DNA of 64,000 bases from positions 66 to 64,065 of the forward strand of contig JASHPB010000044.1 of the NCBI GenBank assembly GCA_030038355.1. Reading direction: 5' to 3'. The notes beneath the pieces are model-generated. The model saw only the letters and a list, made by a program, of their open reading frames with translations. It ran no database searches and had not been told where the DNA came from. Below, in pieces: positions 4,228-27,393 of this stretch. Source of the DNA: Candidatus Binataceae bacterium (GTDB lineage: Bacteria > Desulfobacterota > Binatia > Binatales > Binataceae). Position numbers and translations under genes: made by a program. Position 1 is the stretch's first letter. Each line of letters starts with the position of its first letter.

Positions 4228-4229
4228 AG

Positions 4230-9977: not shown

Positions 9978-10010
9978 ATTGTGTTGCTGAACTATTGTTG
10001 AGCGAGAGCT

Positions 10011-11459: not shown

Positions 11460-11715
11460 TCACTCCATCCTCGGCTCGTATCGGGCCTGGTCAGCTCTGA
11501 AATCCTTTACCACTTCACGATCTCGCTAACGCGGGAGGCGCGCAGGCGTAAAACTTTTTTTGCGGTCTAACCGGACGCGATTTGCGTTGAAAACTCGCGC
11601 CTTTTCGAGACTTTCCGCCGTCGGCACACCAATTGCCTTGTCATTCTGCTGGAACGCGAAGAAACATGCCTGCCGGCATCGTTTGTCGGCAATCGTAGGC
11701 AATTAGGTGTGAGCT

Positions 11716-12189: not shown

Positions 12190-12223
12190 CGCATCGTCTC
12201 GGTCATGGGCTGACGCTTCTGAC

Positions 12224-12269
12224 CGACCTTGCCGCGCCGCCTTCGAGATTTGCGGCGCCGCAGGTCGGC
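12224..12269. terminator. GC-rich imperfect hairpin between convergent genes; candidate bidirectional terminator
   Basis: CCGACC-ttgcc-GCGCCGC-(loop)-GCGGCGC-cgca-GGTCGG lies between the lipoprotein (+) and the serine hydrolase (-). The downstream U-run is weak (GGTTTG). Confidence 0.3.
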
Positions 12270-12291
12270 ATGGTTTGAAAGCCAGCTTGAG

Positions 12292-13515
12292 CTAACCAGT
12301 GGCCGGCGGGGACGGCTCAAGCGACCGCATCACATAGCGATCGAGAACCTCGAGCGGGACCAGTCCCTGTAGCGGGCTCGTGTACATCCCGGAGTTGACG
12401 ACGACCACTAAATCGAGTGCGGGAACTACGAATAGTCGCTGTCCGCCGAGCCCGACAGCGGCGGGCCAGTGGATTTCCTTTCCATCGACCAGCGAGCGGC
12501 CAAGCCAGAATTGGTATCCGTAGAAGAAGAGCGCCTCACCCATCAGATGCGGCGCCGTAGCCTCAGCGATCCATGCGGCGGGCACGATCTGCGATCCGTT
12601 CCATGAACCGTGCTGAAGAATGAGCTGTCCAATCTTCGCGAGATCGCGAGGGCGCAATCTCAGCCCACCGGCCGCGTGCGGGCTAAGGTTGGAATGCTTG
12701 TACCAGGTGAAATCCGTGATTCCGAGCGGCGCGAATAGCAGCGTGCCTGCTAGCTCGTCCACGCCTTGCCCGGTTGCCTTCTTCAATATCGCACCCAGCA
12801 GTTCGGTCGAGCCTGAGTTGTAATTCCATATCTGACCGGGAGCCGCGACGATCGGCGGCGCCAACGCAGCGCGCAACGGATCTGACGATGTGTCCATTAT
12901 GATTTCGCTGTTGTCGGGGCTGGTGTAGGGAACGTCTTCCTCATGCCACTCGATCCCCGACGACATGGTCAGCAGATCGCGAATCGTGATGCGGCTTTTC
13001 TGCGGCGTGGCGAGGTTCGCGTACTCGGGGAAAAAGGACAACACCGGTTCGTCGATGCTTTTGACCCATCCACGATCGATGGCGATTCCCATCACCAGCG
13101 CGACGACGCTCTTGCTCACCGACCGCTCGTCATGCCGAACCGTTGGCCCAAACGTCACATTTCCAACCGCGCGCCCCAGATGCTCGTCGGCGCCCGTGAA
13201 GTATTGCTCGAACACCAGCTTGCCGTGGCGAACCACGAGGACAGCATGTACGTTGTCGAGCTTCGATTCGGCGAGCCACTTGACCATCGGGCATAGAACA
13301 GCCCGGGAGAGACCGACGCTCTCGGGCGTCGCGATTTGCCAACTATCGATACCGCCGATGGGGTCGCCGCATGCGTTCGGGTCAGCATGCAGCGCCGGCG
13401 CCTCTGCGCGCTTGCAACCTCCCATCGCTAGCGCCGCCATCAAGCTGATTAGAATGATCGCTATCCTGACCACTTGGTCCTGTGACGCTACCTTCGATCG
13501 AATTGACGATCTCAT
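12292..13515 (-). CDS. Beta-lactamase-family serine hydrolase/esterase, lipoprotein
   Basis: A lipoprotein signal (LMAALAMGGC) is followed by an S-x-x-K active-site motif (SVSKS), as in class C beta-lactamase-related hydrolases. Confidence 0.75.
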   Translation of the reverse strand: MRSSIRSKVASQDQVVRIAIILISLMAALAMGGCKRAEAPALHADPNACGDPIGGIDSWQIATPESVGLSRAVLCPMVKWLAESKLDNVHAVLVVRHGKLVFEQYFTGADEHLGRAVGNVTFGPTVRHDERSVSKSVVALVMGIAIDRGWVKSIDEPVLSFFPEYANLATPQKSRITIRDLLTMSSGIEWHEEDVPYTSPDNSEIIMDTSSDPLRAALAPPIVAAPGQIWNYNSGSTELLGAILKKATGQGVDELAGTLLFAPLGITDFTWYKHSNLSPHAAGGLRLRPRDLAKIGQLILQHGSWNGSQIVPAAWIAEATAPHLMGEALFFYGYQFWLGRSLVDGKEIHWPAAVGLGGQRLFVVPALDLVVVVNSGMYTSPLQGLVPLEVLDRYVMRSLEPSPPATG

Positions 13516-13516
13516 T

Positions 13517-15394
13517 CTATAGCTTGGTGAATCCGTCGCGGCTCCAATTCTCGGAGCCAACTCCGTTGTGGACGATGAATAGTCCGTCAGGATCGTAGTT
13601 CGCTTTGATCTGTGCAAGGCGAGGATAGTTGTTCCCCCAGTAGGCCTGCTGAAATCCCTTCTGAAAATAGTTGCTCTCGCTCACGTATGCGCCATCTTCC
13701 GCAGTGATGGCGCGGAGTTCGTTGAGGCATTGGTCTATGCGCCGCGATGCCTGTCGGCCTTGGTCGACTGAAGGCTCATGCCCCGGAATTCCAGGGTAAG
13801 CGGGACCTTGGGCATCGGCCGCGATCAACAGGGCGAAGGCCCTCGTAACTGCTGGATTAGTGGCCGTGTCCTTTGTCGCCGCGATTGCCTCAGGCGGCCC
13901 TCCTGCCAGCCCCTTGTTGAAATGCAATTCGAAGCCGGAATGCCGCGAACCGGCGAATAAGGCGTTGGCGAGGCGCTCCTGCGCGTTGCTTTCGAGCAGC
14001 GACTCGGGCAGCCAGAGCGACTCATAACTCCAGATGTACCAGCCGCACTCTCCGGTGTTGCCCTTCCACCACGCGTTGTCGGATCCGGCACCCGATCGAT
14101 TGTCATACGCCAAAAGAGGTTGAGGAATCACGTGGACGAGGACATCGTCGATCAGCGTCTGCAGACGACTGCCGTTTGGAGGGAAAATTGCCTGCGGCCA
14201 GTGCTCCATCCACCACTGTACGTCCCAGAAATGCCGCGCCGGAACGCTTCCGATGGTTACCGGCCATTTTACTGAGTAGTCGGTGGAGCGCCTGGCCCAG
14301 TCGAGGAACGGCTGCCAGACCATCTTTGGTTCATCGGCGTCCAATCCGTGAGAGAGCATCGAGATTTCGAACGTATTGTCGGGATACACGCGCGCCTGCT
14401 CGCCCCAGTGATCGTTGAACAGATTCTCCTTGTAGAAACTTACGAACTCGCGGATGAGCCGCCGATACGCTTCATCTGACGACGCCACGACTTTGAAGTT
14501 GACAATGCCGAAGTACTCCGGAAGTTCGTGAGCTCTCACCGTCAACTTGCTCACGACTCCGAAGGTGCCGCCGCCGCCACCCTTCAGCGCCCAGAACAAA
14601 TCGGGATTGGTGCAGGTATTCGCGATTCGAATCTGGCCGTCAGCAGTGACAACCTCTGCTTCGAGCAAGCTCGCTGCGGCGGTGCCATAGTGCTTCGAGA
14701 AACTTCCGAAACCGCCCCCCTGGATGAGACCGGCGAGGCCGACGGTCAGGCATCCTCCCCCCTGAATGTATTTGCCTGCCTCGGTGCAAACCGCCTCGTA
14801 TGCCTGAAGGTCGATCGTGCCCGCGCCGAGCGTCACCGCCGGTTGAGGCTTCAAAGTTTGTTCGCATCCCCGCGGCACGAACGCATCGTGCATCTGGATA
14901 TCGTGCATCTGCCGCGTCCAGATGAGCAGCGAATCGGGCGCGTTGGATGTGCCCTGGTAGCTGTGGCCACCTCCTTTGACCGCGAGCCGCAAATTGTTTT
15001 CGCGAGCGAAGTTAACAGCGGCGGCGATATCCTGCGCGTTCCTCGCCGCAACTGCGTAAACGCTTGGTTTAGTGTCCCATCCATCGACCCAGCCCAGCGT
15101 CTCCGTGAGCCCCGGACTATCGCCGATGAAGTACGGGTTCTTGAGATTCCTCCAGAGTTGTTTCGCCGCGTCGCTATTCGGGTCCTTGTGAAGCACCAAA
15201 ATCGGAAAATCCACCGCAATCAGATTGCCGCCAACCGTTTCGTTGAGCTGCTTCCACGCAGTCTTCGATGGCCACGCCGCATCGGTGGGACGGCAACGAC
15301 TGGATGACGGCGCCGCGCGCACCCCGCGCGGCATCATCGTAAGCAAGGCAGCTGCCCCAGACGCTGTGAGGAATTCTCTTCTATTCATCGACAA
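13517..15394 (-). CDS. Tat-secreted FAD-linked oxidase (PCMH/VAO-BBE family), copy 1
   Basis: The N-terminus carries a twin-arginine motif (RREFLTASGAAAL). An FAD_binding_4 region (LAVKGGGHSYQGTS) is followed by a BBE-like C-terminus. Confidence 0.8.
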   Translation of the reverse strand: MSMNRREFLTASGAAALLTMMPRGVRAAPSSSRCRPTDAAWPSKTAWKQLNETVGGNLIAVDFPILVLHKDPNSDAAKQLWRNLKNPYFIGDSPGLTETLGWVDGWDTKPSVYAVAARNAQDIAAAVNFARENNLRLAVKGGGHSYQGTSNAPDSLLIWTRQMHDIQMHDAFVPRGCEQTLKPQPAVTLGAGTIDLQAYEAVCTEAGKYIQGGGCLTVGLAGLIQGGGFGSFSKHYGTAAASLLEAEVVTADGQIRIANTCTNPDLFWALKGGGGGTFGVVSKLTVRAHELPEYFGIVNFKVVASSDEAYRRLIREFVSFYKENLFNDHWGEQARVYPDNTFEISMLSHGLDADEPKMVWQPFLDWARRSTDYSVKWPVTIGSVPARHFWDVQWWMEHWPQAIFPPNGSRLQTLIDDVLVHVIPQPLLAYDNRSGAGSDNAWWKGNTGECGWYIWSYESLWLPESLLESNAQERLANALFAGSRHSGFELHFNKGLAGGPPEAIAATKDTATNPAVTRAFALLIAADAQGPAYPGIPGHEPSVDQGRQASRRIDQCLNELRAITAEDGAYVSESNYFQKGFQQAYWGNNYPRLAQIKANYDPDGLFIVHNGVGSENWSRDGFTKL

Positions 15395-15410
15395 TCCCTT
15401 GGGCGCAGTC

Positions 15411-16496
15411 TTATCGCGACAATTGCGGACGCAGACGGAGTATGCCGAATATCGCGATGATCACGGCAAACGCGAAAACGATCGCTGCGTCCGGAACCAC
15501 TTCAAGTGCCGTCGCATGATCGAAGATCAAACCCAAATACGCTTCCATCGCCCACGAGGCAGGGGATAGATGAGCCAGGATCTTCATGAATGGCGGTACT
15601 ACTTCGAGCGGCCACATGCATCCACCGAGCATTCCAAATGCAACGCCGATCCATGGACCGAGCGAAACCGCCTGCTGGCGGGTTTTGAATACCGTGCCCA
15701 TCAAGAGGACAATCGCGACGCCGAGGCATACGACCGCGGCGGTAATGAGCAGGAGGCCTAGCGGGTCGCCCCAATGAACGCCGAAGAAAAGCCACGCGGC
15801 GACGATCATGAATACCGCCTCCGCAACCATTTGTTGCGCTGGCGCGACCGCGAGCATCCCGAGCAGTTCCCAGGTGCGGCGCGGTGCGGCCAGCAGGCGG
15901 CGCGAAAGCCCGCTTTCGCGGAGTTGAAGGATCGGCAGGGTCAGGACGAAACCATTAATCATCATGAACAGGACCAGGTTCGCCGGCGCCGTGTACGGGA
16001 AGCCCACGCGTGGCGAACCAGCGTGCCCTCCTGCGGGATAACGGATCGGAGTGTCGAGCGACTTGCCGCCGCGCGCCAAACCGCTTAGCTCGGCGTCGAT
16101 GCCGGCTCGGACGATGGCGGCGGTGGAACTCGCGCTCGAAAGGTACACGGGAACGTTTCGGCCGCCGTGCCATCCGGGCGGAATCAGTATTCCGGCGTTC
16201 ATCCGTCCCCTGAAAACGGCGATCCGAAGGCGCTCCGCGTTCGTATAGTCGCGGACGCGAAACTGCTCGTTGGCTTCGAGGCGGGCGATGAGCGCACGGC
16301 TCTCGCTGGTGTGCGCTCGGTCGAGGATGCCTACCACGAACGACGAGCTCACGTAACCGCCCATCGCAAATCCTACTACTGCCATAATGACCCCGGGCAG
16401 GAGGAACAAGGCCACCAGCCGCCTGCGATCGCGCGCCGCGGCCGCGCCGCTGGCCGCGGCCGCGCCGAAAATGACGTTGAGGCTACGTCGCATCAC
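15411..16496 (-). CDS. ABC-2 type transporter permease
   Basis: Six-TM ABC-2 topology with a large N-terminal loop, adjacent to a second permease and the ATPase. Confidence 0.75.
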   Translation of the reverse strand: MMRRSLNVIFGAAAASGAAAARDRRRLVALFLLPGVIMAVVGFAMGGYVSSSFVVGILDRAHTSESRALIARLEANEQFRVRDYTNAERLRIAVFRGRMNAGILIPPGWHGGRNVPVYLSSASSTAAIVRAGIDAELSGLARGGKSLDTPIRYPAGGHAGSPRVGFPYTAPANLVLFMMINGFVLTLPILQLRESGLSRRLLAAPRRTWELLGMLAVAPAQQMVAEAVFMIVAAWLFFGVHWGDPLGLLLITAAVVCLGVAIVLLMGTVFKTRQQAVSLGPWIGVAFGMLGGCMWPLEVVPPFMKILAHLSPASWAMEAYLGLIFDHATALEVVPDAAIVFAFAVIIAIFGILRLRPQLSR

Positions 16497-16497
16497 T

Positions 16498-17604
16498 TTA
16501 AGTCATCCTTTGAAGTGTTGCGTTCGCCCTGAGACCAGCGAGCGCAATCCCGATGAACCCGACGAGCGCTGTGACCGCGAGTGGCTCCGCTATCGTGAGC
16601 AAACTTCCATGCGCGCCTGCCGCCGAAAGATCCATGAATCCAAAGAACGACTGTCCATTCGGAGTTAGGCGACTGAGGGTCTCGAAGATGTCCGGAAGGC
16701 CTTGCGGCGGCAGAAACTGTCCACCGACGATTGAGAGGAGGACAATCACGAGCGTCGCCAGCGCGTTTCCCTGGTCCGCATTGCCTGCCAGGCTCATCAA
16801 GAACGCTGTCAGTCCGATCGCCATCAGCACGCTGGTGAAAACCAACGCGGCGGTCGCAAGCCGATTACCCCAATGGGTTCCGAACAGCAACGAGGTTGCC
16901 GCGATCATGGTGCCCATCTGCACGAGGCCGATGATGAGCAGAGCAGTGAACTTGCCCGCGACAATCGCATGCGGCCGGGCGGGAGAGGCAACCAGCCGAA
17001 CGATGGTGCGCAAGTCAATCTCGGCTTGCAGCGCGCGGACACCAGACAGCACGCCAAAATTCAGAAACAGGACCGCCATCGACATCGCGAAGAAATCGAC
17101 CACCCGCATCTGCCCGCCGGCCGTGACCGGAGCCACCTCGGGAGTGACGCGATCGCGAGGCATGGCTGCACGATTCATGAAATCGCGGAGAAGCCCTCGC
17201 GTCGCGAGCATGGCGAACTCTTCGCCTCGCGCGGCGAGAATCTCAACCGGCGGTTTGTCGCCGCTGATGAGCGCTTTTGCAAAGCCGGTGTTCATCACCA
17301 CCGCGCACTCTGCCGCGTGTTCCTTGATCATCCGCTCGGCCGCGGCAAGCGAATCGACCGGCTCTATCAGGACTGTTCCTCGCGGTGATTGCTGCTCGAC
17401 GAATCTGACGAATGCGGCGGACTCTTCTGAGTGGTCGAGATCCGCGATGCCAAGGCGCATCCCCGATCCTCCATGAGAACCGCCGAGCGCAAAGCCCATC
17501 AGCGCAGTCAGCGCGAGCGGCGCGACGATCGCGGTCAGAATCGCGGTTCGATCGCGCATCCTTTGGAGAAGGTCCTTGAGGCAAACCAGGATCGCGTATC
17601 GCAT
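16498..17604 (-). CDS. ABC-2 type transporter permease
   Basis: An ABC-2 permease fold that is a paralog of the adjacent permease. Confidence 0.75.
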   Translation of the reverse strand: MRYAILVCLKDLLQRMRDRTAILTAIVAPLALTALMGFALGGSHGGSGMRLGIADLDHSEESAAFVRFVEQQSPRGTVLIEPVDSLAAAERMIKEHAAECAVVMNTGFAKALISGDKPPVEILAARGEEFAMLATRGLLRDFMNRAAMPRDRVTPEVAPVTAGGQMRVVDFFAMSMAVLFLNFGVLSGVRALQAEIDLRTIVRLVASPARPHAIVAGKFTALLIIGLVQMGTMIAATSLLFGTHWGNRLATAALVFTSVLMAIGLTAFLMSLAGNADQGNALATLVIVLLSIVGGQFLPPQGLPDIFETLSRLTPNGQSFFGFMDLSAAGAHGSLLTIAEPLAVTALVGFIGIALAGLRANATLQRMT

Positions 17605-17610
17605 GTGAAG

Positions 17611-18609
17611 TTAGTCGCGCAGGGCGCGTCCCGTCATGCGCAGAAAAACGTCTTCGAGATTTGGCTCCACTACACGCACACTGTCCGCCACGGTGCCGGC
17701 GTTGAGAAGCGCCGTCAGCATCGCGGGCAATCGATTGGCTCCATGATCGGCGACTACATGAAGATGATCGTTCTCCACGGTTGCGAGCTGCACGCCCTCG
17801 AGCGCGCTGACGATTCGCTGCGCGCGTACGAGCGAGTCGCCACGTCCCACCCCAATCTCGATTCGCGTATCCTGTGCCAGGTTCCCGATCAGCTCGGCAC
17901 GCGTGCCTTCGGCGATCAGGTGGCCTGAATCGATGATTCCGATGCGGGCGCAGAGGCGCTCCGCCTCTTCCATGTAGTGCGTCGTGTAAAGGATGGCGGT
18001 GCCAGCATCGCGGAGCCGCTCCACCAAATCGAAAATGGCGCTGCGACTCTGCGGATCCACGCCAACCGTCGGCTCGTCAAGAATGAGAAGCTTCGGCTGA
18101 TGCAGAATGCCGGCCGCGAGATTCAAGCGCCGTTGCATTCCGCCCGAGTAGGTCCCGACAATGTCGTCGGCACGCTTGGTTAGACCTACAGCTTCGAGAG
18201 CGGTGTCGATCGCCGCCCGTAGCGCGGTGCCGCTGAGATCATACAAGCGCCCCCAAAAGTCGAGATTCTCGCGCGCGGTGAGATCGAGATAGAGAGTGAT
18301 CGCCTGCGGTACGATTCCGATAAGTGCGCGCGCCGCGGGTCCAACGTCGATGTCGACGCCGTCGATCGTGATTTCGCCGCCGTCGCGTACGAGGATTCCG
18401 GCAATCATCGAGATCGAGGTGGTCTTGCCTGCACCGTTGGGTCCAAGCAAGCCGTAAATCTCCCCGGCCGCGATGCTGAATCCGATGCCTTCAACCGCGA
18501 CTCGCGCGCCGAAGCTCTTGCTGAGCCCTCGCACGACCAGCATTGGCGCCGACGGTTCGCTGGCCGTCATTCCTATCGCCGGGGGCATGGTCTCGACCTT
18601 TGTTTCCAT
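17611..18609 (-). CDS. ABC transporter ATP-binding protein; the start is chosen at METKVETMPP to avoid overlap with the upstream oxidase
   Basis: Walker A GLLGPNGAGKTT, signature YSGGMQRRLNLA, and Walker B LLILDEPT. Confidence 0.8.
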   Translation of the reverse strand: METKVETMPPAIGMTASEPSAPMLVVRGLSKSFGARVAVEGIGFSIAAGEIYGLLGPNGAGKTTSISMIAGILVRDGGEITIDGVDIDVGPAARALIGIVPQAITLYLDLTARENLDFWGRLYDLSGTALRAAIDTALEAVGLTKRADDIVGTYSGGMQRRLNLAAGILHQPKLLILDEPTVGVDPQSRSAIFDLVERLRDAGTAILYTTHYMEEAERLCARIGIIDSGHLIAEGTRAELIGNLAQDTRIEIGVGRGDSLVRAQRIVSALEGVQLATVENDHLHVVADHGANRLPAMLTALLNAGTVADSVRVVEPNLEDVFLRMTGRALRD

Positions 18610-18625
18610 CGCCGATGGTGGATCT

Positions 18626-20497
18626 CTATTGCTTGGTGAATCCGTCGCGGCTCCACTGCTCCGAGCCGACTCCATTGTGAACGAAGAATAGCCCGTCGGG
18701 ATCGTACTTCGCTTTGATCTGGGCCAAGCGCGGATGATTGCTGCCCCAGTACGCTTGCTGGAAGTTCTTCTCGAAGTAGTTGCTCTCGCTCCAATACGCG
18801 CCGGTGTCGCCGCTCACTGCGCGTAGCTGATCGACGCAATCGTCGACGCGTTTTCGAGCGGCGCGCCCTTCCACAACGTTGGGCTCATGACCTGGAATTC
18901 CGGGATAGGCTGAGTCCTGCGCGTCACCGACGATTGCAAGCGCAAATGCGTCCAGCACCGCGGGATTCGTCGCCGTGTCCTTCGCCGCTGCGATCACGTC
19001 AGGTGGCGCTCCCGCAAGTCCTTTGTTCAAGTGCAGCTCCAGCCCCGAATGGCGTGATGCCGCGAACAGCGCGTCTGCGAGTTTCTGCTGCGAAGCACTC
19101 GCGAGCAGGGACGCGGGAAGCCATAACGATTCCATTGCCCAGAGATACCAACCGCACTGAAAGGCATCGCCCTTCCACCATGCGTTACTTGGACTTGCAC
19201 CCGGGCGCTCATCAAAATTCAAGGTCGGCTGCGGAATGATATCGACCAGGACGCGATCAAGAAGGCCGCTGAACACACCAGTGTTGGGGATTGCGATTTC
19301 GACGAAATGCTCCTTCCACCACTCAACGTCCCACCAGCGCTGGGCAGGCAGGCTTCCGATCGTCACACGCCCCTCGATTGAATAATCGTTGGATGAGTTC
19401 CTCACCCAATCGAGAAATGGCTTCCAGATCTTAGTCGCCTCATCGCGATCAAGTCCCTGCGAAACCATGTTGACTTCAAATATGTTGTCCGGCCGAAACC
19501 GCGGCTGCTCGCCCCAATGATCGTTGAAGAGATTCTCGCTGTAGAAGCTCACGAACTGGCGGATGAGCCGCCGATAAGCATCGTCCGACGATGCCTTGAC
19601 CTTGAAGCTGGCGGCGCCGAAGTACTCCGGAAGATCATGCGTGCGCAGCGTCACCTTGCTGATCACGCCGTAGGTTCCGCCTCCACCGCCCTTCAGCGCC
19701 CAGAACAAATCCGAGTTGTTGCATGCGTTCGCCATCCGAACCTGGCCATCGGCGGTGACGACCTCGGCCTCGAGCAAACCCGCGGCCGCCGTGCCAAAGT
19801 GCTTTGAATAGCTTCCGAAGCCACCGCTCTGGATCAGGCCTGCGACTCCTACCGTGGTGCATCCTCCGCCCTGCACGTACTTCCCGCCCTTGGTGGTGAC
19901 CGCCTGATACGCCTGCATCCAGATCGTTCCAGCGCCCAGCGTAACCGCGGGTTGCGGCTTCATGGTCTGCTCGCATCCCTGCGGCACGAATGCGTCGTGC
20001 ATCTCGATATCGTGCATGTGCCGCGTCCAGATCAGCAGCGAGTCGGGTGCGTTGGAGGTCCCCTGATAGCTATGTCCTCCGCCCTTGACCACAAGGCGCA
20101 GATTGTTGTCGCGTGCGAATTTGACGGCAGCCGCAATATCCTGCGCGTTCCGCGCCGCGACCGCGTAAACACTCGGTTTAGTGTCCCACGCGTCGACCCA
20201 TCCGAGCGTCTGCGTGAGGCCCGGCGTGTCGCCGATAAAGTACGGGTTCTTCAGATTCTTCCAAAGCTGCTTCGCCGCGTCGCTGTTTGGATCCTTGTGC
20301 AAAATCGAAAGTGGAAAATCGACCGGAATAAGATTACCGCCGACTGTTTCGTTAAGCTGCTTCCATGCGGTCTGCGACGGCCACGCCGCAGCGCCGGGAC
20401 GACACCTGCTCGATGTCGGAGCGGCTCTCAAACCGCACGGCATCATCGAGAGGAGAGCGGCCGCACCCGACGCCTTCAGGAATGTTCGTCTGTTCAT
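18626..20497 (-). CDS. Tat-secreted FAD-linked oxidase (PCMH/VAO-BBE family), copy 2, paralog of 13517-15394
   Basis: RRTFLKASGAAAL Tat motif and VVKGGGHSYQGTS. The protein is collinear and highly similar to copy 1 throughout, and the DNA is also clearly similar. Confidence 0.8.
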   Translation of the reverse strand: MNRRTFLKASGAAALLSMMPCGLRAAPTSSRCRPGAAAWPSQTAWKQLNETVGGNLIPVDFPLSILHKDPNSDAAKQLWKNLKNPYFIGDTPGLTQTLGWVDAWDTKPSVYAVAARNAQDIAAAVKFARDNNLRLVVKGGGHSYQGTSNAPDSLLIWTRHMHDIEMHDAFVPQGCEQTMKPQPAVTLGAGTIWMQAYQAVTTKGGKYVQGGGCTTVGVAGLIQSGGFGSYSKHFGTAAAGLLEAEVVTADGQVRMANACNNSDLFWALKGGGGGTYGVISKVTLRTHDLPEYFGAASFKVKASSDDAYRRLIRQFVSFYSENLFNDHWGEQPRFRPDNIFEVNMVSQGLDRDEATKIWKPFLDWVRNSSNDYSIEGRVTIGSLPAQRWWDVEWWKEHFVEIAIPNTGVFSGLLDRVLVDIIPQPTLNFDERPGASPSNAWWKGDAFQCGWYLWAMESLWLPASLLASASQQKLADALFAASRHSGLELHLNKGLAGAPPDVIAAAKDTATNPAVLDAFALAIVGDAQDSAYPGIPGHEPNVVEGRAARKRVDDCVDQLRAVSGDTGAYWSESNYFEKNFQQAYWGSNHPRLAQIKAKYDPDGLFFVHNGVGSEQWSRDGFTKQ

Positions 20498-20531
20498 TTC
20501 ACCCGCCTTTCAGCCGGCGCTCGCCGCGCTT

Positions 20532-22040
20532 TCACAACGCGCGAGCGGACGCGGTTTGCTCTGCTTCAAGCGCGCTCAGCTGTGCGACACCTTGTGAATC
20601 AGATGCGTTCGCACCTTCGAGCCGTGCGACGTTTTCGAGATGGGTGGAGCGGTCGATGTTGTAGACGAGCAGGACGGCAATCGCAATCGCGCTGAAAGTC
20701 GTAACCGTCGGCACGAATACCATTCCAAGGTGGTACAGAACGGCCGGGTCGACGTGACCTTGCTGCGCATGCTGCGGGAAGCTGACCCAGGCCAGGATGA
20801 GGCCGGAGAGGAACGTGCCTACTCCCGTCACGCACTTGGCGATAAGCCCATTGGCGGCGAACAGCAATCCTTCCGAACGCTGGCCCGTCGCGATCGCCGC
20901 GTCCTCAACCACGTCCGCCATCATCGAGCTCGCAATGATGAATCCCGTGAGACCGAGCGTCGCCGAGAGGAAGGTGAAGGCGAGGACGATGATGAACACT
21001 GCAGGCGTGCCGTTTGGCGGCAGCATTCCGACGAGGCGCATCGCGATCGGCGCGATCGAGGTAAACAGCGATGCGAAGAACACTCCGATCATCGCGGGCT
21101 TCTTGCCGAAGCGTTTCGAAATCGCGGGCGCCAGCCCAACTCCCGCGAATGCTGCAAACAGAGTGGCCACCGCAAGATACGACATCTGCGCCGGCGTGAG
21201 CTCGAAGAAATAGGCCGAGATGTAGAAGTCGAGGCTCTGCCTGAGGCCCATCGAAATCGCGCCGACAATTCCGGAAATCGTAAGCGCCAGGAACGAGCGG
21301 TTCGTCACGGTGACGCTCAACTCGCGAAACTTGTCGTGCCACGTGGTGCGGACCCTCGGCTCGCGCGCGACCGTTCGGATAAAGCGGTGCGTGCCGATGC
21401 ACGAGATCATGATCGAAAAGAAAATTGCGATTCCCGCGCTGATCCCGATCGCGCGATAGCCCGCCGGATTCAACAAACCCAGTGGATGCGCCGCGTCCTT
21501 GCGCAGGAACACCTGCAGCGCGAGGAACGAAATCCCCGCGCCGCCTAGAGTGCCGAAGAAGAAGCGCGAGCTCATCAGGCTCGTGCGCTCGTCGTAATCG
21601 TAGGTCAGCTCCGGTCCCAGCGCAGAGCTCGGGATCTCGTAGAGGCTAAGCAATACCCGCACCGTCACCAGCATCACGCCCATATAGATGAGCAAGTGAT
21701 CCTTCGACCATCCAAGCGGCGGTGCGAGCAGAAAGTAGAACGCGATTGCGGCTGGAAGCGCCGACGCGTACATGAACGGATGCCGCCGGCCCCACCCCGA
21801 GCGCGTGTGATCCGACCATTCGCCGATTAGCGGATCGCAGATCGCATCGAAGATCAGCGTCACCATCATCACCGCGCCGACCCACGCCGCCGGCAGTCCA
21901 ACCACCTGGTTGAAGAACAACAGCAAGCCCGATGCTAACAGCGCCTGATGAACGCCGAAGGCAGCCGAGCCGACGCCATACAGGACGTTGGTCGAAAACG
22001 TCAGCCGCCGAGGCTTTGACGATGGTTGTTCAATGCTCAC
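20532..22040 (-). CDS. MFS transporter, GPH (glycoside-pentoside-hexuronide:cation symporter, MelB-like) family
   Basis: 502 aa and 12 TM. The motifs DAICDPLIGEWSD...RSGWGRRHPF are typical of GPH/MelB symporters. Confidence 0.75.
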   Translation of the reverse strand: MSIEQPSSKPRRLTFSTNVLYGVGSAAFGVHQALLASGLLLFFNQVVGLPAAWVGAVMMVTLIFDAICDPLIGEWSDHTRSGWGRRHPFMYASALPAAIAFYFLLAPPLGWSKDHLLIYMGVMLVTVRVLLSLYEIPSSALGPELTYDYDERTSLMSSRFFFGTLGGAGISFLALQVFLRKDAAHPLGLLNPAGYRAIGISAGIAIFFSIMISCIGTHRFIRTVAREPRVRTTWHDKFRELSVTVTNRSFLALTISGIVGAISMGLRQSLDFYISAYFFELTPAQMSYLAVATLFAAFAGVGLAPAISKRFGKKPAMIGVFFASLFTSIAPIAMRLVGMLPPNGTPAVFIIVLAFTFLSATLGLTGFIIASSMMADVVEDAAIATGQRSEGLLFAANGLIAKCVTGVGTFLSGLILAWVSFPQHAQQGHVDPAVLYHLGMVFVPTVTTFSAIAIAVLLVYNIDRSTHLENVARLEGANASDSQGVAQLSALEAEQTASARAL

Positions 22041-22849
22041 CAGGAACGCTCTTCACGCCGCGTGCACTCGACGCCGCCATCAACAAAAAGGACCTGTCCT
22101 GTCATCAAAGAGTTCTCCGGGCTGAGGCACCAGGCGATGATTGCGGCCATTTCATCCGGCCGTGCCGGATACTCCCCGCGCAGCGGAACCATCTGTCCCA
22201 TGGCCGACCTGGTGTCGGGATTCGAGAGGATATAGGCGGCCGCCGGCGTATCGATAAATCCCGGCGCGAGCACGTTCAGCGTGATGCCAGCGCCTGCCCA
22301 ATCGCCTGAGCCCGCCGCGCGGCGGCACCAGCAATTCAACGAATACTTGGCGTTGGCGTAGAGCGCCAATCCGACCTGCAAGCCTTGCTCCGGCGTCATC
22401 TTGTCGAGCGGCGCAATCTTCGAGGCGTATTTCCACGCGCCGTCGATCGCCGCCTCCTCGTCCATCTTGAGCATGGCACTGACCAGGCTCTCGTCGACGG
22501 GACTGAACGACGCTATCGATGAAACCGCGATCGCCCGCGGCGCAGGACTGGATTTGAGCAGCGGGCGCAAGCCTTCGAGCGTCGCGACCGCGCCGAAGAA
22601 GTTCAGTTGCAGACTGGTCTGCGGAGGGCCACCACCCGCGACCGCCGCGATGGCATCAATTCGACCACCGGAGAGTCGCGTCACGCCATCAACGAGCGCT
22701 TTGCGTCCTTCGTTCGTCGTGAGGTCGGCGACCACCTCAGCATCGCGGAGATCGGTGCCGATAACGCGCCCGCCCCGCTCCCGAAGCCATCGCGCGGTTG
22801 CCGCGCCGATTCCGGACGCAGCGCCCGTGACTACGAACGTTCGATCCAT
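22037..22849 (-). CDS. SDR-family oxidoreductase
   Basis: Rossmann motif VTGAASGIG near the N-terminus, at classical SDR length. The start is taken at MMDRTF. Confidence 0.75.
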   Translation of the reverse strand: MDRTFVVTGAASGIGAATARWLRERGGRVIGTDLRDAEVVADLTTNEGRKALVDGVTRLSGGRIDAIAAVAGGGPPQTSLQLNFFGAVATLEGLRPLLKSSPAPRAIAVSSIASFSPVDESLVSAMLKMDEEAAIDGAWKYASKIAPLDKMTPEQGLQVGLALYANAKYSLNCWCRRAAGSGDWAGAGITLNVLAPGFIDTPAAAYILSNPDTRSAMGQMVPLRGEYPARPDEMAAIIAWCLSPENSLMTGQVLFVDGGVECTRREERSW

Positions 22850-22997
22850 CATTGATACTCCCAGCATCGGCGATTCGGGTAGGAGCAACCGCGATGCCAT
22901 CGATGAAGTCAGTTAAATGCAATAATTCCCATTCGCGCGAACGCAGTTACGGCGCTGCGCGCAGTGCCGCGCGTGCAGAGGTTCTCGATCTCGACGA

Positions 22998-24080
22998 TCA
23001 TCTTAATGCCGGCGTGACGATTCCAAGTTCGATCATCGTGCGGCCGGTTTCGAATAGTGTGTCATCTACCGGGCGTGACGTAAGGCCCAAGTCCTCGCGC
23101 GCATGATCGCAGTAGGCGCGCGGCGCGTCATACGGGCGGCCATACTTCGCGACTATCTCCTCGTATCCCTTCGGCGGGCCGCCGACGGCGACATGCGGGA
23201 AGAGGCGCGCGAGATGCTGCTGCAGCTCGGCGGCGTTCAGCTCGCCCGAGCGATCGGCCGCCGTCAATTGATAGCGCCCGCCGTTGGCGCAGTGGGCGCT
23301 TTCGATTATCAGCGCGTGGGCCTCGCCGACGTCGCGCACGTCCACGATATTCCATAGGTGCTGCCATCCGCGCCCGCACGGCTTTCCCATCAGCATCCGC
23401 CCGAGGAAGTATTGCCACGAGCCTGGCAGCTCATGCGCGCGAGAGAGCAGCGGCCCCAGTCCGACGCACGGACACACCGTGATCACGTCGAAGCGGCCGT
23501 GCTCCTCGGCGACGCGCCAAGCCAGCTGCTCGGTCGCGATCTTGCCCATCGCGTACGCGACGTCGCCGTTGGTCTCGATATTCTCCGGCGTCCAACTCGC
23601 ATCCCTGCCGCGATTATCCGACGCCCAGTCCTTCTCAGTGAAGATGTATCCGGGCGCCGCCGGATGCGCGATCGCCGAGAACGAACTCGTGTATACGACG
23701 CGCCGCACGCTGCCCGACTTCTTCACCGACTCGAGCACGTTCATGGTACCGCTCACCGCGCCATCGTAAATCTGCCGCGGCTTGTTCACGTTGGCATAGC
23801 CCATGGGAGTGCCGACGTGCAGCACGGCCGCGCATCCGGCGAAGACCTCGTCGTAGCTCCCGGGCTCGAGCAGGTTGCCGGTTCGAAGTTCGACGCGGCC
23901 CGGATACACGCCGCTATTCATCGCGAGCAGATGCGCAGTCTTCTCCGGCTTGCTCTGATCCGTTACGCACGCGCGCACCGTGTGCCCGCGCTTCACCAGC
24001 GCCAGCACGACGTGCGAGCCGATATGACCTGACGCTCCGGTGACAGCAACGGGACCATCGGACGGTTTAACCTGGGGCAT
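22998..24080 (-). CDS. NAD-dependent epimerase/dehydratase family protein (extended SDR; cinnamoyl-CoA-reductase or 3-beta-HSD-like)
   Basis: VAVTGASGHIGSHVV Rossmann motif and YAMGK active-site Y-x3-K, in 360 aa. Confidence 0.75.
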   Translation of the reverse strand: MPQVKPSDGPVAVTGASGHIGSHVVLALVKRGHTVRACVTDQSKPEKTAHLLAMNSGVYPGRVELRTGNLLEPGSYDEVFAGCAAVLHVGTPMGYANVNKPRQIYDGAVSGTMNVLESVKKSGSVRRVVYTSSFSAIAHPAAPGYIFTEKDWASDNRGRDASWTPENIETNGDVAYAMGKIATEQLAWRVAEEHGRFDVITVCPCVGLGPLLSRAHELPGSWQYFLGRMLMGKPCGRGWQHLWNIVDVRDVGEAHALIIESAHCANGGRYQLTAADRSGELNAAELQQHLARLFPHVAVGGPPKGYEEIVAKYGRPYDAPRAYCDHAREDLGLTSRPVDDTLFETGRTMIELGIVTPALR

Positions 24081-24102
24081 TTGGGCGTTCTCCGATTGCT
24101 AT

Positions 24103-25770
24103 TTATCGACCGTGGCGGAGCACCTGGCCCGCGTGGACCCCGGTATGGCGGCCGTCGCGCAGGTTGACCTTGCCGTTGACGATGGTCGCCTTGTAGCCGA
24201 CCGAGCGCTGGATAAATCGCGGCGCGCCGCCCGGAAAATCATTGACCAGCTCCGGCTGCCGCTCGGCGACCTGGTCCGCGTCGAACACGTTGACATCGGC
24301 GCGCATCCCGGGTTTAAGCGTCCCGCGATCCTTGAGGCCGATGACGCGCGCCGGTCCAGAGGTCAGGCGACGGATCGCCTCGGCCATCGAGTAGAGCCCG
24401 GTCTCGCGCACCCAGTACGACAGGACGAAGCTCGGCCATCCCGCGTCCATGATTTGCGAGACATGCGCGCCGGCGTCGCCGAGGCTCGGGAAGCAGTGCT
24501 CGCTCTTGAACAGGTCGCCGAGCGCCTTCAGGTTGCGATTGAACATCCTGAGGTTGAAGAGTGCCTTGCCGCCCGTCTCGCGCGTGAGGCGAAGGAAAGT
24601 ATCCGCCCAATGCTCGCCGGCCCTGGCCGCCTTTGCCTTCAGATTGTTGTCCGACGCCGCCGTGTAGTCGGGCGAGACGCCCGCGCCGAGGTAGAAGACA
24701 TGACTCATATCTATGAAGGTGGAATTCTCGCGTTTCGCCTCCTCGAGCAGTTTGGCGCTGAAATCGGAATCGTTGATCGCGGCGAGGCGCTCGCGAAAAC
24801 TACGCGCGCGCAGCTCATGCCACGTCTCGCCCGCGACCGGCAAGTTTGACTGCAGCCCGAAGATGAAACCCGAGCCGCGCACCTGCGTGATCGCGGTGAC
24901 GTCGCGATGGCTACAGAAGCGGTCGAGAAACTGGCGGCGCTGGATGCCCGAGTCGTCTTCCTCGCCCGCGCCGAAGCTGAACAGAATACGGCTCTTGCCC
25001 TCGTCCGCGATCGCCTTCATCACTTCGAGGTCGGCGCCGACGGCCTGCATCAGCGCGTCGCGTGGCGCGACCTGCTTCGCGATTTCGATAAGCTCGATCG
25101 GATCGGCAAACGTGCCGGGAATCGAACGACCGTCCGGCAGCTGGTGCGGCGCGTAGCGATTGGTCGAGAATCCGACCGCGCCGCGATCGATCGACTCGCC
25201 CACTATCTCGGCCATCCGGCGCCTCTCGGCTGCGGTCGCCTGCGCTTCGACCGCGCGCTCGCCCATCACGTAGAAGCGTACGGCGCAGTGCCCGACCATT
25301 CCGGCGACGTTGATTCCGGGGTTCAGCTTTTCGATCGCATCGAGGTAGCCGCCGTAACCCTCCCAGTTCCACGGGAGCCCGGTGAGGATTGCGTTGCGCG
25401 GGATATCCTCGACCGTCTCCATCATCGCGGCGAGCAGCTCGCGATCGGTGGGCCTGCAGGGCGCAAAGGTGACGCCGCAGTTGCCGAGCAGCGCGGTAGT
25501 CACGCCGTGCCAGCTCACGGGCGTGAGGTCGGGATCCCACCCGATTTGCGCGTCGAGATGGGTATGGACATCGACGAAGCCTGGCGTGACGATCAGGCCG
25601 CGCGCGTCGATTTCGTCGCCTCCGCCGCCTACCTCGTGGCCGATCGCCGTGATCCGGCCGTCATCGATCGCGAGGTCGGCGGCGAAAGGCTCGGCGCCCG
25701 TGCCGTCAACGATAGTGCCGCCCTTGATGACGATTTCATGCGACATTGTGCTCTCCGCTTCATGTGACAT
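24103..25770 (-). CDS. N-acyl-D-amino-acid deacylase (D-aminoacylase) family amidohydrolase
   Basis: 555 aa. The N-terminus IVIKGGTIVDGTG...GLIVTPGFVDVHTH has a metal-binding HxH, and the C-terminal region matches Amidohydro_3 / D-aminoacylase. The start region carries a 24-bp tandem duplication, so the alternative start is 25746. Confidence 0.75.
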   Translation of the reverse strand: MSHEAESTMSHEIVIKGGTIVDGTGAEPFAADLAIDDGRITAIGHEVGGGGDEIDARGLIVTPGFVDVHTHLDAQIGWDPDLTPVSWHGVTTALLGNCGVTFAPCRPTDRELLAAMMETVEDIPRNAILTGLPWNWEGYGGYLDAIEKLNPGINVAGMVGHCAVRFYVMGERAVEAQATAAERRRMAEIVGESIDRGAVGFSTNRYAPHQLPDGRSIPGTFADPIELIEIAKQVAPRDALMQAVGADLEVMKAIADEGKSRILFSFGAGEEDDSGIQRRQFLDRFCSHRDVTAITQVRGSGFIFGLQSNLPVAGETWHELRARSFRERLAAINDSDFSAKLLEEAKRENSTFIDMSHVFYLGAGVSPDYTAASDNNLKAKAARAGEHWADTFLRLTRETGGKALFNLRMFNRNLKALGDLFKSEHCFPSLGDAGAHVSQIMDAGWPSFVLSYWVRETGLYSMAEAIRRLTSGPARVIGLKDRGTLKPGMRADVNVFDADQVAERQPELVNDFPGGAPRFIQRSVGYKATIVNGKVNLRDGRHTGVHAGQVLRHGR

Positions 25771-25782
25771 TGTGCTCTCCGC
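25735..25782. repeat. Perfect-but-one 24-bp tandem duplication spanning the RBS, ATG and first codons of the amidohydrolase
   Basis: ttcatgcgacattgtgctctccgc / ttcatgtgacattgtgctctccgc. It yields MSHEAEST-MSHE with two in-frame ATGs, each preceded by GGAGAG. Confidence 0.85.
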
Positions 25783-25857
25783 GCTCCGATGCGCATAATT
25801 GGCGCCGCCGGCGAGAAACGAACCCGTTGAGGATTACCGCGCTCTTGCCGGCGCTTG

Positions 25858-25886
25858 TTAGAACGGATATTCTAAAATAGCCGTTC
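25858..25886. promoter_or_regulatory. Nested palindrome in the divergent promoter region; candidate TetR operator
   Basis: TTAGAA-cggata-TTCTAA overlaps GAACGG-(14)-CCGTTC, within the 141-bp intergenic region between the amidohydrolase (-) and the TetR gene (+). Confidence 0.3.
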
Positions 25887-25938
25887 GAGTCAAGCGTGGC
25901 GAAGAAGAATCTTGGAAGAGAAGTTTCAAAAGAAGCCG

Positions 25939-26607
25939 ATGGTCTCGCGGCCGTCTAGGCGCGACCTAGCGGCGGCGGCCGCCGGTGATGCGATCCTTGG
26001 AGTCCGCGGCTATCGCATCCGCGATCTTGCCAAGGCCGAGGAGCGCCGCCGCGCGATCCTGCTCGGCGCGGCGCGAGCGTTCGCGAAGGGCGGCTACGAC
26101 GCGACCAACATGGATCAGATCGCACGCGAATGCGGCCTCGCCAAGGGCCACATCTACCACTACTTCCGGAGCAAGGAAGATATCTTCACGGAAATCCGCT
26201 GCGAGGCCGTGACGCGGCTCCTAGAGCGCCTGACGGCGATTATCGACGAGACAGGAGACGACCCGGAGGCGGTCATCAGGCAAGCGATCGCGGCGGCGGT
26301 CGCGCGCGCCTTCAAGGAGGGCGAGCGCTACGAATCTGTCCTGCCAGACCCCGTGTCATTGAGCCCGGAGAATCGGCGGCGCATCCGCAGGCTCGGGCGC
26401 CGTTACGAGCAGCTGTTCTCGAATGTCATCGGCGATGGCATGGCCAAGGGCATTTTCGCCCACGGCGATCCGAAGCTCGTGACGTTCGTAGTTCTACGCG
26501 CCGCACTCACGGTGTCGAACTGGTACCGCGAAGGCGGCAAATGGAAACCCCGCTGGATCATCGACCAGGTGACCGAGCAGTTGGTGCGGAGCCTCCGCGC
26601 GCGGTAG
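25939..26607 (+). CDS. TetR/AcrR-family transcriptional regulator
   Basis: An N-terminal HTH (ILLGAARAFAKGGYDATNMDQIARECGLAKGHIYHYFRSKEDIF) is followed by a helical ligand-binding domain. The start could also be at 25912. Confidence 0.8.
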   Translation: MVSRPSRRDLAAAAAGDAILGVRGYRIRDLAKAEERRRAILLGAARAFAKGGYDATNMDQIARECGLAKGHIYHYFRSKEDIFTEIRCEAVTRLLERLTAIIDETGDDPEAVIRQAIAAAVARAFKEGERYESVLPDPVSLSPENRRRIRRLGRRYEQLFSNVIGDGMAKGIFAHGDPKLVTFVVLRAALTVSNWYREGGKWKPRWIIDQVTEQLVRSLRAR

Positions 26608-27393
26608 CCGTGGGCGGATCCTACGCGAAATCTATCGGGCGGCCCTTTGATTCTCGCCGGTCAGGTTTCGAGTGGTTGGACGTCGCGATCGATCGCCGCC
26701 TGACGCTGACGGCGCGCGCTACGAATCTCGTAGGAGACCTGCAGAGGGAGCCAGAATTCCGCGTCGTTCCCGAAATACGCCCAAGCGGAGCGCACTGTCG
26801 GCGGTAATCGCGCGGCGGCCACCGATTATCTGGCAGATGCGCCTTTGCGGCACTCGCAGCGCCAGCGACAAGGGGCTCGAACCCGCGCGTGAGCGCCAGG
26901 TGATTGAGCGTCTCCTCGCTGACGACGTCGCCGATCGTTGCTTTGAAACCCCGATCCTCGATTTGATGTACGGATGGTGTCTGGGCCTCCGAGTCAGCCG
27001 GTCGGCCGACTCGCGGTCCGCCTCGACCGCGCAGACCCATCCCGGCGCATCCGCGCGAGCGCCAGCGTATGGTGTCCGTTCTTCGCGCCGATGTCGTGGC
27101 AACGATCCCCCTTGCGCGCCGCCGATAGCACGATCGGTCGAATCTCTCGCTCGGCGAGCCCCAGGGTAGGGGCGCGTATCGTGGCGGAAGTTGATGGGAT
27201 AATCGCATCCGCGGATGATTCGTGCCGGTAAGCGCCGATAGGTGGCCTGGTCTGCCACCGCCGTGTTCTTGATTTTGCGGAGTGTTCCGCGCATCGGGAC
27301 TGGCAACCTAAGCCGCGAACTGACCTGTCCGTCAACTCGATCGCGATGATTGCCCCATGGCATTCGAGCCATCGAGCAAGTAAGCATCAAAGC

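Follow-up and report, generated by a model that had tools for sequence, protein, structure and literature searches.

Gene content and organization of the cluster

A stretch of 64,000 nucleotides from the genome of an uncultured soil bacterium of the Candidatus Binataceae (contig JASHPB010000044.1, assembly GCA_030038355.1), referred to here in its whole length as the window, carries a cluster of ten co-directional and tightly packed open reading frames (ORFs) on the minus strand, from 12292 to 25770, with the gene of a TetR-family repressor transcribed divergently at 25912-26607 on the plus strand. All of these ORFs are present where a first-pass annotation, made from the letters of the DNA, had placed them. 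They encode an amidohydrolase, two short-chain dehydrogenases/reductases (SDRs), a GPH-family symporter, two flavin oxidases on either side of an ABC-2 transporter, and a serine hydrolase. A core of this set recurs at related loci together with a conserved operator-like element, and the cluster may serve to oxidize a compound in the periplasm before its import and breakdown. Families were assigned by Pfam and NCBIfam profile searches of the window proteins, followed by sequence comparison with the PDB, and the features are as follows.

12190-12291, minus strand: GC-rich hairpin, possible operon end (from folding energy)
12292-13515 (longest ORF to 13617), minus strand: beta-lactamase-fold serine hydrolase (Pfam Beta-lactamase, 113.9 bits)
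13517-15394, minus strand: oxidase B, BBE-like, with Tat signal (Pfam FAD_binding_4 and BBE)
15411-16496, minus strand: ABC-2 permease 2 (Pfam ABC2_membrane_3)
16498-17604, minus strand: ABC-2 permease 1 (Pfam ABC2_membrane_3)
17611-18612 or to 18675 (start uncertain), minus strand: ABC-2 ATPase, DrrA/NodI-like (Pfam ABC_tran)
18626-20497, minus strand: oxidase A, BBE-like, with Tat signal (Pfam FAD_binding_4 and BBE)
20532-22040, minus strand: GPH-family (MFS_2) cation symporter (Pfam MFS_2, 277.8 bits)
22037-22900, true start probably near 22852 (MMDRTF...), minus strand: classical SDR (Pfam and PDB comparison)
22998-24080, minus strand: extended SDR of the dihydroflavonol-4-reductase (DFR)/cinnamoyl-CoA reductase (CCR) type (Pfam Epimerase/3Beta_HSD)
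24103-25770, minus strand: amidohydrolase of the D-aminoacylase family, presumably cytoplasmic (Pfam Amidohydro_3, 123 bits)
25852-25900, minus strand, reading toward the operon: promoter/operator-like element (conserved motif)
25912-26607, plus strand: TetR-family repressor (Pfam TetR_N and TetR_C_24)

The genes had been described as overlapping by 1-4 nt in several places. With sensible start codons the spacers, from tail to head, are 1, 16, 1, 6, 13, 34, -4, 97 and 22 nt, and the sole true overlap is the 4 nt shared by the SDR and GPH genes; overlaps of 50 and 100 nt in the longest-ORF calls are start-codon artefacts. Nine consecutive neighbors on the same strand have a chance of about 0.2% from orientation alone which, taken with the conserved synteny described below, puts the arrangement beyond chance. 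Between the convergent hydrolase and Thr-rich lipoprotein genes, the hairpin at 12190-12291 (-44.2 kcal/mol, z -2.3 against shuffled sequences, with no U tract) is a possible, if weak, mark of the operon end. No RNA element was found within or near the cluster by an Rfam scan, and a terminator scan of the window returned sites at chance level.

Conserved synteny and modular variation

Exact-sequence look-ups of the window proteins gave no matches, so genomic context was taken from homologues. Oxidase A (30 species-level genome loci), permease 2 (80 metagenome loci) and the hydrolase served as anchors, and the window proteins were mapped onto 121 loci, designated here by L numbers. The gene set is kept in relatives, and the loss of synteny that would speak against a functional link between the genes was not seen. 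In four close relatives the cluster occupies the corresponding chromosomal position, beside the Thr-rich lipoprotein gene and gatB, and gene orders compare as follows (TetR divergent in each case).

Window: TetR; amidohydrolase - reductase - SDR - GPH - oxidase A - ABC-2 - oxidase B - hydrolase
L007: order of the window, without the hydrolase
L117: TetR; amidohydrolase - reductase - SDR - GPH - oxidase A - oxidase B - hydrolase, without ABC-2
L119: order of L117, with a third oxidase (65% identical) between oxidases A and B

The block from the head of the cluster to the oxidase has 84-92% protein identity in L001, L007, L117 and L119 and is partly found at 65-77% in more distant loci. Head block and oxidase A/B pair are orthologous and stable among the syntenic relatives (83-92% identity), and the slot between the two oxidase genes, compared among close relatives at this chromosomal position, is either empty or occupied by an ABC-2 exporter or a third oxidase. 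Duplicated oxidases flanking an ABC-2 exporter, a layout to which the first-pass annotation had drawn attention, are found in the window and in one relative only and do not form a conserved design.

The core module, a divergent TetR gene followed by SDR, GPH and oxidase genes, was found at about 12 of the 30 oxidase-anchored genome loci, all of them Binatia-type metagenome-assembled genomes (MAGs). Its minimal form is present in L010, L011, L013, L029, L031, L032, L033 and L035, and extended forms in L001, L007, L008, L009, L015, L117 and L119, the amidohydrolase and DFR/CCR-type reductase being an extension at the head. The SDR is the constant partner of TetR in the core, and TetR orthologues with 58-87% identity adjoin the module in 15 loci; L017 has TetR facing the oxidase alone. 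Other variants include a crotonase added between the head genes and the SDR (L009, L015), an F420-dependent LLM oxidoreductase appended to the module (L011, L031, L032, L035), and an ABCD-type half-transporter, similar to fatty-acyl transporters, in place of the GPH protein (L008, where a tandem oxidase pair represents a separate, lineage-specific duplication). Altogether, the core module is very probably a co-regulated unit. The earlier proposal of one TetR-linked unit is borne out by core synteny and by the operator motif described below, but the ten genes do not make up one fixed pathway, as the ABC-2 and hydrolase genes come and go.

A further block lies convergent with the core in L005, L006, L010 and L029 (11869-16639, minus strand), comprising genes for a sulfotransferase, an M20 peptidase/aminoacylase, an unknown protein and a second, distant MFS_2 protein (28% identical), and forms another pairing of deacylase and GPH protein beside the oxidase.

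The operator element and its TetR regulator

A palindrome reported at 25858-25886, between tetR and the cluster, proved real (TCGAACGGCTATTTTAGAATATCCGTTCTA, about 25858-25887 of the window). It falls in an element of about 45 bp at 25852-25900, CTTGACT-N12-TTTTAGAATATCCGTTCTAAC, with TTAGAA-N6-TTCTAA as core palindrome. In the intergenic regions inspected, the part of the element that is conserved in relatives reads CTTGAC-N12/13-TTTTAGAATA..CGTTCTAA; a search of the relatives for the exact window palindrome (GAACGG...CCGTTC) gave no match. The 64-kb window contains a single copy of the element (0.1 expected by chance), as does each of the 15 TetR-orthologue loci, where it always lies between tetR and the first operon gene, whether this encodes the amidohydrolase, the SDR or the oxidase. 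It is also located directly upstream of free-standing ABC-2 operons in L044 (exact) and L055 (one mismatch), neither of which has TetR or module genes nearby, and it was not found in the roughly 105 other loci (scan of 1.29 Mb in all). A consensus sigma-70 scan stayed at chance level; the 13-nt spacing of the conserved element kept it from being detected.

That the element is shared, unlinked ABC-2 operons included, is the strongest evidence for one regulon. It points to a single regulon made up of the TetR-linked operons and the two unlinked ABC-2 operons, with TetR as the predicted binding protein, and indicates that the ABC-2 exporter would be a functional part of this regulon although it is physically mobile.

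The closest solved or curated relatives of the TetR protein (PDB, NCBIfam) are 3dcf, 3vpr (Thermus PfmR), DarR, FadR and KstR2. It scores 58.9 bits against the curated Bacillus FadR model (cut-off 200) and is also far below the cut-off of the curated KstR model; its resemblance is to the acyl-CoA and fatty-acid sensors FadR, KstR2 and PfmR. FadR, PfmR, KstR2 and DarR are TetR-family repressors that control catabolic operons for lipids, CoA thioesters and steroids, and relatives of this type respond to fatty acids or CoA thioesters. Like these proteins (FadR of Bacillus and Thermus among them), the window regulator combines an N-terminal helix-turn-helix with a TetR_C_24-type ligand domain, its gene is divergent beside the target operon, and the predicted operator, a palindrome of about 18 bp, overlaps a promoter-like element. 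Unlike them, it has an operator sequence of its own, and the genes that it would regulate are not beta-oxidation genes.

Oxidases A and B

The two oxidases (623-625 amino acids) are 74% identical, and oxidase B has its own orthologues in relatives (83-89%). Both are above the Pfam gathering thresholds for PF01565 (68-75 bits) and PF08031 (44-46 bits). They start with twin-arginine sequences, MNRRTFLK and MNRREFLT, and a signal for twin-arginine translocation (Tat), consisting of the motif, a hydrophobic stretch and an A-x-A site, can be read in oxidase A (MNRRTFLKASGAAALLSMMPCGLRA) and oxidase B (MNRREFLTASGAAALLTMMPRGVRA); the Pfam TAT_signal score of oxidase A is 21.5 bits, just under the cut-off of 22.7. 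The earlier description of the oxidases as Tat-secreted agrees with the Tat-substrate motif in both N-termini, and export is predicted for both.

The best PDB match of oxidase A is MtVAO615 (6f72, E 2e-55), with typical BBE enzymes far lower. Its His142 and Cys213 align with His157 and Cys222 of MtVAO615, the residues that hold flavin adenine dinucleotide (FAD) bicovalently, and the same attachment is predicted here. Val216 is located at the O2 gatekeeper position, and Glu571 (in YWSESNY) aligns with Glu519 of MtVAO615 at the site of the catalytic Tyr (position of GOOX Tyr429). All four residues are invariant in 24 homologues. The roles of the His/Cys, gatekeeper and Glu519 residues have been described for MtVAO615 (PMC6017366). 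A small Val gatekeeper implies reactivity with O2, and the catalytic Tyr of carbohydrate oxidases (GOOX, ChitO, LaO, AA7) and of BBE oxidases that tailor antibiotics is replaced by Glu. By residue signature, length, signal peptides and best PDB match, both oxidases are assigned to the MtVAO615 'clade II' type. This clade includes MtVAO615 and MtVAO713 of Myceliophthora thermophila (6F72, 6F74), the Hypomyces alcohol oxidase of hypothemycin formation and ecdysteroid-22-oxidase, and the substrates of its characterized members are secondary alcohols of a bulky kind (ricinoleic acid, a hypothemycin precursor, ecdysteroids), MtVAO615 being inactive on 23 carbohydrates (PMC6017366).

With MtVAO615 the window oxidases have in common secretion or export (predicted here), the small Val gatekeeper, Glu in place of the catalytic Tyr and a length of about 575-625 amino acids; the alignment is good in the FAD domain and the C-terminal BBE segment only, not at residues ~370-555. 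Unlike the fungal MtVAO enzymes, which are Sec-secreted and glycosylated, they are bacterial proteins with Tat signals to the periplasm, and their genes share an operon context with those for a transporter, an SDR and a repressor. An AlphaFold2 model of oxidase A, built from a low-diversity alignment of 24 sequences, was poor (mean pLDDT 44.9). A literature search on periplasmic or Tat-exported bacterial BBE-like oxidases and on Binatota physiology turned up nothing specific to this module.

By its oxidase homologues the contig is placed in Candidatus Binataceae. Close oxidase homologues number in the thousands in soil metagenomes, and at about 17 of the 30 oxidase loci, including all those of Acidobacteriota and Gammaproteobacteria, the oxidase gene is solitary. 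Near-identical oxidase paralogues, 74% identical to oxidase A, stand alone by housekeeping genes in L003, L004 and L018 (10001-11872) and in L002 (10001-11878), one of them adjoining secE-nusG-rplKAJL-rpoBC and another lying between genes for Ppx-GppA and an HU-type DNA-binding protein; with these solitary Binataceae paralogues, the oxidase family has roles outside this operon too. Family members with 63-69% identity occur in MAGs of Acidobacteriota (Acidoferrales, Bryobacteraceae) and Gammaproteobacteria/Pseudomonadales (L019-L024, L027, L028, L030, L034), an unusually high identity across phyla that suggests either strong constraint or horizontal transfer among soil bacteria. In L031, L035 and L036 (Microflora Danica long-read MAG contigs, ~10001-11900), the oxidase genes are split into 2-4 tblastn segments, which are probably homopolymer frameshift errors of assembly and not real pseudogenes.

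Transporters

The symporter passes the threshold of PF13347 MFS_2 with 277.8 bits but stays below that of TIGR00792 gph (171 bits, cut-off 231). MelB and the lysolipid symporter MFSD2A match it weakly and about equally, and the DxxxDP motif of helix II is readable. GPH proteins are importers as a rule, and the window protein is presumed to be one as well.

Among curated models, the ABC-2 ATPase is best matched by DrrA and NodI (TIGR01188 drrA, 277.8 bits, cut-off 312.45). The two permeases pass the Pfam ABC2_membrane_3 threshold and reach 29-50 bits with DrrB models (cut-offs 147-223). As in DrrAB and NodIJ, one ATPase is combined with ABC-2 permeases, here behind a predicted operator of the TetR type; unlike those systems, this one has two different ABC2_membrane_3 permeases and is set between two oxidase genes, not beside a biosynthetic cluster. 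Permease 1 always travels with the ATPase and permease 2, and the three-gene cassette is missing from the syntenic L117 and L119. When permease 2 was used as the anchor of the metagenome scan, 301 relatives were recovered, most of the close ones without a neighboring oxidase or GPH gene; ABC-2 orthologues beside an SDR, GPH or oxidase gene were found in L037, L039, L040 and L043. A gene of the SMP-30/gluconolactonase family follows the ABC-2 orthologues in L045 (5730-6590), L061 (883-1887) and L072 (997-1776), on contigs without an oxidase.

Cytoplasmic enzymes and the lipoprotein hydrolase

The amidohydrolase (PF07969, 123 bits) is placed by similarity in the N-acyl-D-amino-acid deacylase (D-aminoacylase) family. 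Its PDB matches are N-acyl-D-glutamate deacylase (3gip, 142 bits), D-aminoacylase (1m7j, 127 bits) and the carbohydrate de-N-acetylase OngB (107 bits), and the metal-ligand motifs HxH (DVHTH) and GNCG are readable.

Pfam and NCBIfam agree with the families proposed earlier for every gene, but the label 'epimerase' given to the extended SDR is not retained. This protein aligns over most of its length with DFR, CCR and ketoreductases at 96-122 bits (DFR 122, CCR 110), whereas GalE-type UDP-Glc epimerases reach about 31 bits over the N-terminal Rossmann part only; its closest relatives are ketoreductases of the DFR, CCR and aldehyde-reductase type. For the classical SDR, the best match is HsdA of Comamonas testosteroni (1fjh, 129 bits), a 3-alpha-hydroxysteroid dehydrogenase/carbonyl reductase (3-alpha-HSD/CR) that aligns along the entire protein, the next SDRs reaching at most 58 bits. 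The alignment with HsdA (1FJH) includes the inserted helical region of that subfamily, and the catalytic Ser and YxxxK, and thus the Ser/Tyr/Lys residues, are kept; the similarity is, however, moderate, and there are no steroid-degradation genes nearby. With PRK12428 (coniferyl-alcohol dehydrogenase) the score is 97.6 bits, against a cut-off of 242.

The first-pass annotation had called the last gene a beta-lactamase-family lipoprotein hydrolase, and the Pfam match agrees. With the ATG at 13515 as start codon, 1 nt beyond the end of the oxidase B gene, the protein has the lipobox LAMGGC, which predicts a lipoprotein, and its SxxK motif is SVSK. Among PDB entries it matches the Leptospira lipoprotein Lsa45 (139 bits), 6-aminohexanoate-dimer (nylon-oligomer) hydrolase and EstB. 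A class C beta-lactamase was considered and rejected (AmpC-type NCBIfam models, 18-26 bits, cut-offs 680-880). The gene is present in three of the four syntenic relatives; orthologues with 84-86% identity hold the same tail position in L117, L119 and L120, and none was found in L007 or in the first 36 loci mapped. A recent foreign origin was discarded, as the GC content at third codon positions (0.72) matches that of the neighbors.

Flanking regions

One flank of the cluster holds the housekeeping genes gatA, gatB, serS and pst, and the other a gene for an MFS sugar-type transporter (27724-29232). In the window, a tRNA gene (457-530, minus strand), a pstCAB-phoU-type phosphate block with serS (2730-7580) and gatA/gatB (8517-11459) are syntenic with L117. 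The Thr-rich lipoprotein gene (11716-12189, plus strand) encodes a small protein with the lipobox LLGC and Thr/Ser/Tyr-rich low-complexity sequence but no Pfam match, and it is found with 56-67% identity at the same site, between the cluster tail and gatB, in L007, L117, L119 and L121. In the 1.1-kb gap between tetR and the MFS gene, a Methyltransf_21-type gene appears as two tblastn segments in different frames (~26873-27384, minus strand); it is intact in L001 and L007, and the window copy appears to be a remnant or pseudogene with a frameshift, or else reflects an error in the sequence.

A proposed mechanism and its alternatives

The best reading of the cluster, with a probability of about 0.5, is that it serves the periplasm-first oxidation, import and breakdown of a bulky, amphipathic, hydroxyl-bearing compound, following a catabolic or detoxification logic. 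It retains the logic put forward in the first-pass annotation, namely extracytoplasmic modification combined with uptake and cytoplasmic steps under a ligand-sensing repressor. The compound is probably amide- or ester-linked. Localization, direction of transport, the whole of the chemistry and the inducer are predictions from sequence.

The ten genes would be one operon, repressed by TetR and transcribed from one promoter/operator (25852-25900). TetR would be released from TTAGAA-N6-TTCTAA by a substrate-related inducer, for which a CoA thioester or a metabolite resembling a fatty acid is plausible. The two Tat-exported, bicovalent-FAD oxidases would then use O2 to oxidize an alcohol in the periplasm, most likely a secondary one, where the lipoprotein serine hydrolase may trim an ester or amide, and the GPH symporter would bring in the oxidized product. 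Once in the cytoplasm, carbonyl and hydroxyl groups could be interconverted by the 3-alpha-HSD/CR-type SDR and the DFR/CCR-type reductase, and the D-aminoacylase-family amidohydrolase could cleave off an acyl group or an amino acid. Captured as a cassette between the oxidase genes, and presumably under the same regulator, the ABC-2 exporter may pump out the compound or a toxic intermediate and so limit toxicity. Three families of amide or ester hydrolase have been recruited (Amidohydro_3, the beta-lactamase fold, and M20 beside the module in L005); along with the crotonase, the ABCD-type transporter and the F420-dependent alcohol/ketone oxidoreductase of related loci, these speak for an alcohol that is lipophilic and amide- or ester-linked, and not for a sugar.

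Several observations weigh against this reading. Many oxidase genes are solitary, and in the distance tree these are intermingled with the module-linked copies, so that the role of the oxidase is not tied solely to this operon. The chemistry is drawn from low-identity family resemblance, with nearly all curated NCBIfam models below their cut-offs. Steroid/terpenoid, phenylpropanoid and hydroxy-acyl-amide substrates would all suit the enzymes to about the same degree, and any particular substrate class is, taken singly, an unlikely choice at best. GPH transporters classically carry glycosides, which would be a better fit to a sugar-type substrate. ABC-2 orthologues (70-78% identity) occur mostly in other neighborhoods (L042, L045, L047, L053), and the 13-nt spacing between TTGACT and TAGAAT is not that of a canonical sigma-70 promoter. 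Lastly, MtVAO615 is itself without a known substrate (PMC6017366).

A specifically steroid-directed pathway was considered but not adopted: the 3-alpha-HSD-like SDR and the weak 3-beta-HSD and KstR matches are all sub-threshold, an NCBIfam match to '3-succinylated cholic acid synthase' reaches 124 bits against a cut-off of 800, and there are no genes for steroid-ring degradation.

A carbohydrate or glycoside route, in which a sugar or amino sugar, either free or as part of a glycoside, would be oxidized in the periplasm to a lactone, aldonic acid or keto-sugar, imported by the GPH protein, de-N-acetylated by an OngB-like enzyme and reduced or oxidized in its ring by the SDRs, is considered unlikely. 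It would account for the GPH-type transporter, for the many BBE-like enzymes in the PDB that are oligosaccharide, chito-oligosaccharide or N-acetylhexosamine oxidases, for the gluconolactonase-family gene after ABC-2 orthologues in L045, L061 and L072, and for the match of the amidohydrolase to the carbohydrate de-N-acetylase PpOngB. A parallel is the Ong pathway, where OngB (9kb1/9kb3) de-N-acetylates GlcNAc1A from oxidized chitin, and which shares with the window the amidohydrolase family and the logic of oxidizing outside, importing, and deacylating inside. However, OngB is a weaker match than the N-acyl-D-amino-acid deacylases, genes for a lytic polysaccharide monooxygenase, a deaminase and KDG metabolism are missing, and the type of oxidase argues against sugars, with Glu571 where carbohydrate oxidases have the catalytic Tyr and a grouping with MtVAO615, which was inactive on all 23 carbohydrates. 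Furthermore, no kinase, aldolase, dehydratase or glycosidase gene is present in the operon or at any related locus, relatives contain the crotonase and the ABCD-type transporter, and the TetR protein is FadR/KstR2-like, resembling sensors of acyl-CoA or fatty acids. The suggestion of a glycosylated substrate in the first-pass annotation is dropped on the same grounds: the missing Tyr, the inactivity of MtVAO615 on carbohydrates, the lack of sugar-catabolic genes and the regulator type.

Alternatively, the cluster could export and mature a self-made metabolite or envelope lipid, with the ABC-2 transporter or an MFS_2 flippase carrying it outward for finishing outside, or confer drug resistance by efflux and oxidative inactivation; both are rather improbable. 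TetR together with efflux is a classic resistance layout, the ABC-2 ATPase is most like the DrrA/NodI exporters, and the ABC-2 operon shares the TetR operator motif even when unlinked. The BBE-like relatives of oxidase A in the PDB include, besides carbohydrate oxidases, AknOx, TamL, GilR and the mitomycin radical oxidase resistance protein. AknOx is secreted and finishes aclacinomycin outside the cell, and the window oxidases would likewise be secreted bicovalent flavoenzymes for a bulky molecule outside the cytoplasm, with a plausible supplier in the neighboring ABC-2 system. Unlike AknOx, which retains the catalytic Tyr450 and is encoded in a biosynthetic cluster, they have Glu571, no biosynthetic genes around them and an importer in the core. 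Genes for a polyketide synthase, nonribosomal peptide synthetase, terpene synthase or glycosyltransferase are absent from the operon and from related loci, the constant core SDR-GPH-oxidase lacks the exporter, which is also missing from the syntenic L117 and L119, GPH proteins import as a rule, and the amidohydrolase is of a degradative type.

Least probable is a mosaic without any single function, in which independent modules (amidohydrolase/reductase, SDR-GPH-oxidase, ABC-2, oxidase, hydrolase) would have come to be co-oriented in a variable region: solitary oxidases (L002, L003, L012 and all Acidobacteriota and Gammaproteobacteria loci), free-standing ABC-2 genes (L053, L045, L042), a hydrolase in another context (L118) and the slot between the oxidase genes that differs among close relatives would fit it, but genes that lie 1-34 nt apart or overlap by 4 nt have no space for promoters of their own, the 97-nt gap between extended and classical SDR being a possible exception, the window has a single operator/promoter motif with terminator-like sites at chance level, the same motif precedes ABC-2 operons elsewhere, and four relatives keep the order from head to oxidase (84-92% identity), as do more distant ones in part (65-77%).

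Significance

Periplasmic oxidation followed by import and deacylation is the preferred reading of the locus. In its parts this is an ordinary ligand-controlled catabolic or efflux operon of common gene families, found specifically in uncultured Binataceae, and nothing in it suggests a novel mechanism; its sequence similarities fall short of membership in any characterized family. New are the core module, the cassette slot between oxidase paralogues, the operator motif shared with unlinked ABC-2 operons and the MtVAO615-type signature.

Binataceae are uncultured and widespread in soil, and their physiology is known from genomes only. It is tentatively suggested, as a possibility well short of an even chance, that their module may represent an undescribed periplasmic oxidation-import-deacylation route for an abundant amphiphile of soil, for which a hydroxylated N-acyl lipid, a phenolamide or monolignol derivative, and a steroid or terpenoid alcohol are candidates. 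MtVAO615 is the sole studied bicovalent member of its clade, with a structure but no substrate. If the suggestion is true, this orphan clade, which is very common in soil metagenomes, would for the first time be placed in a physiological context, with tractable clues to its substrates. The operon context, with its repressor and defined operator motif, importer, co-regulated exporter, reductases and deacylases, would then offer a route to de-orphan the oxidase clade and a handle on what Binataceae consume or detoxify.

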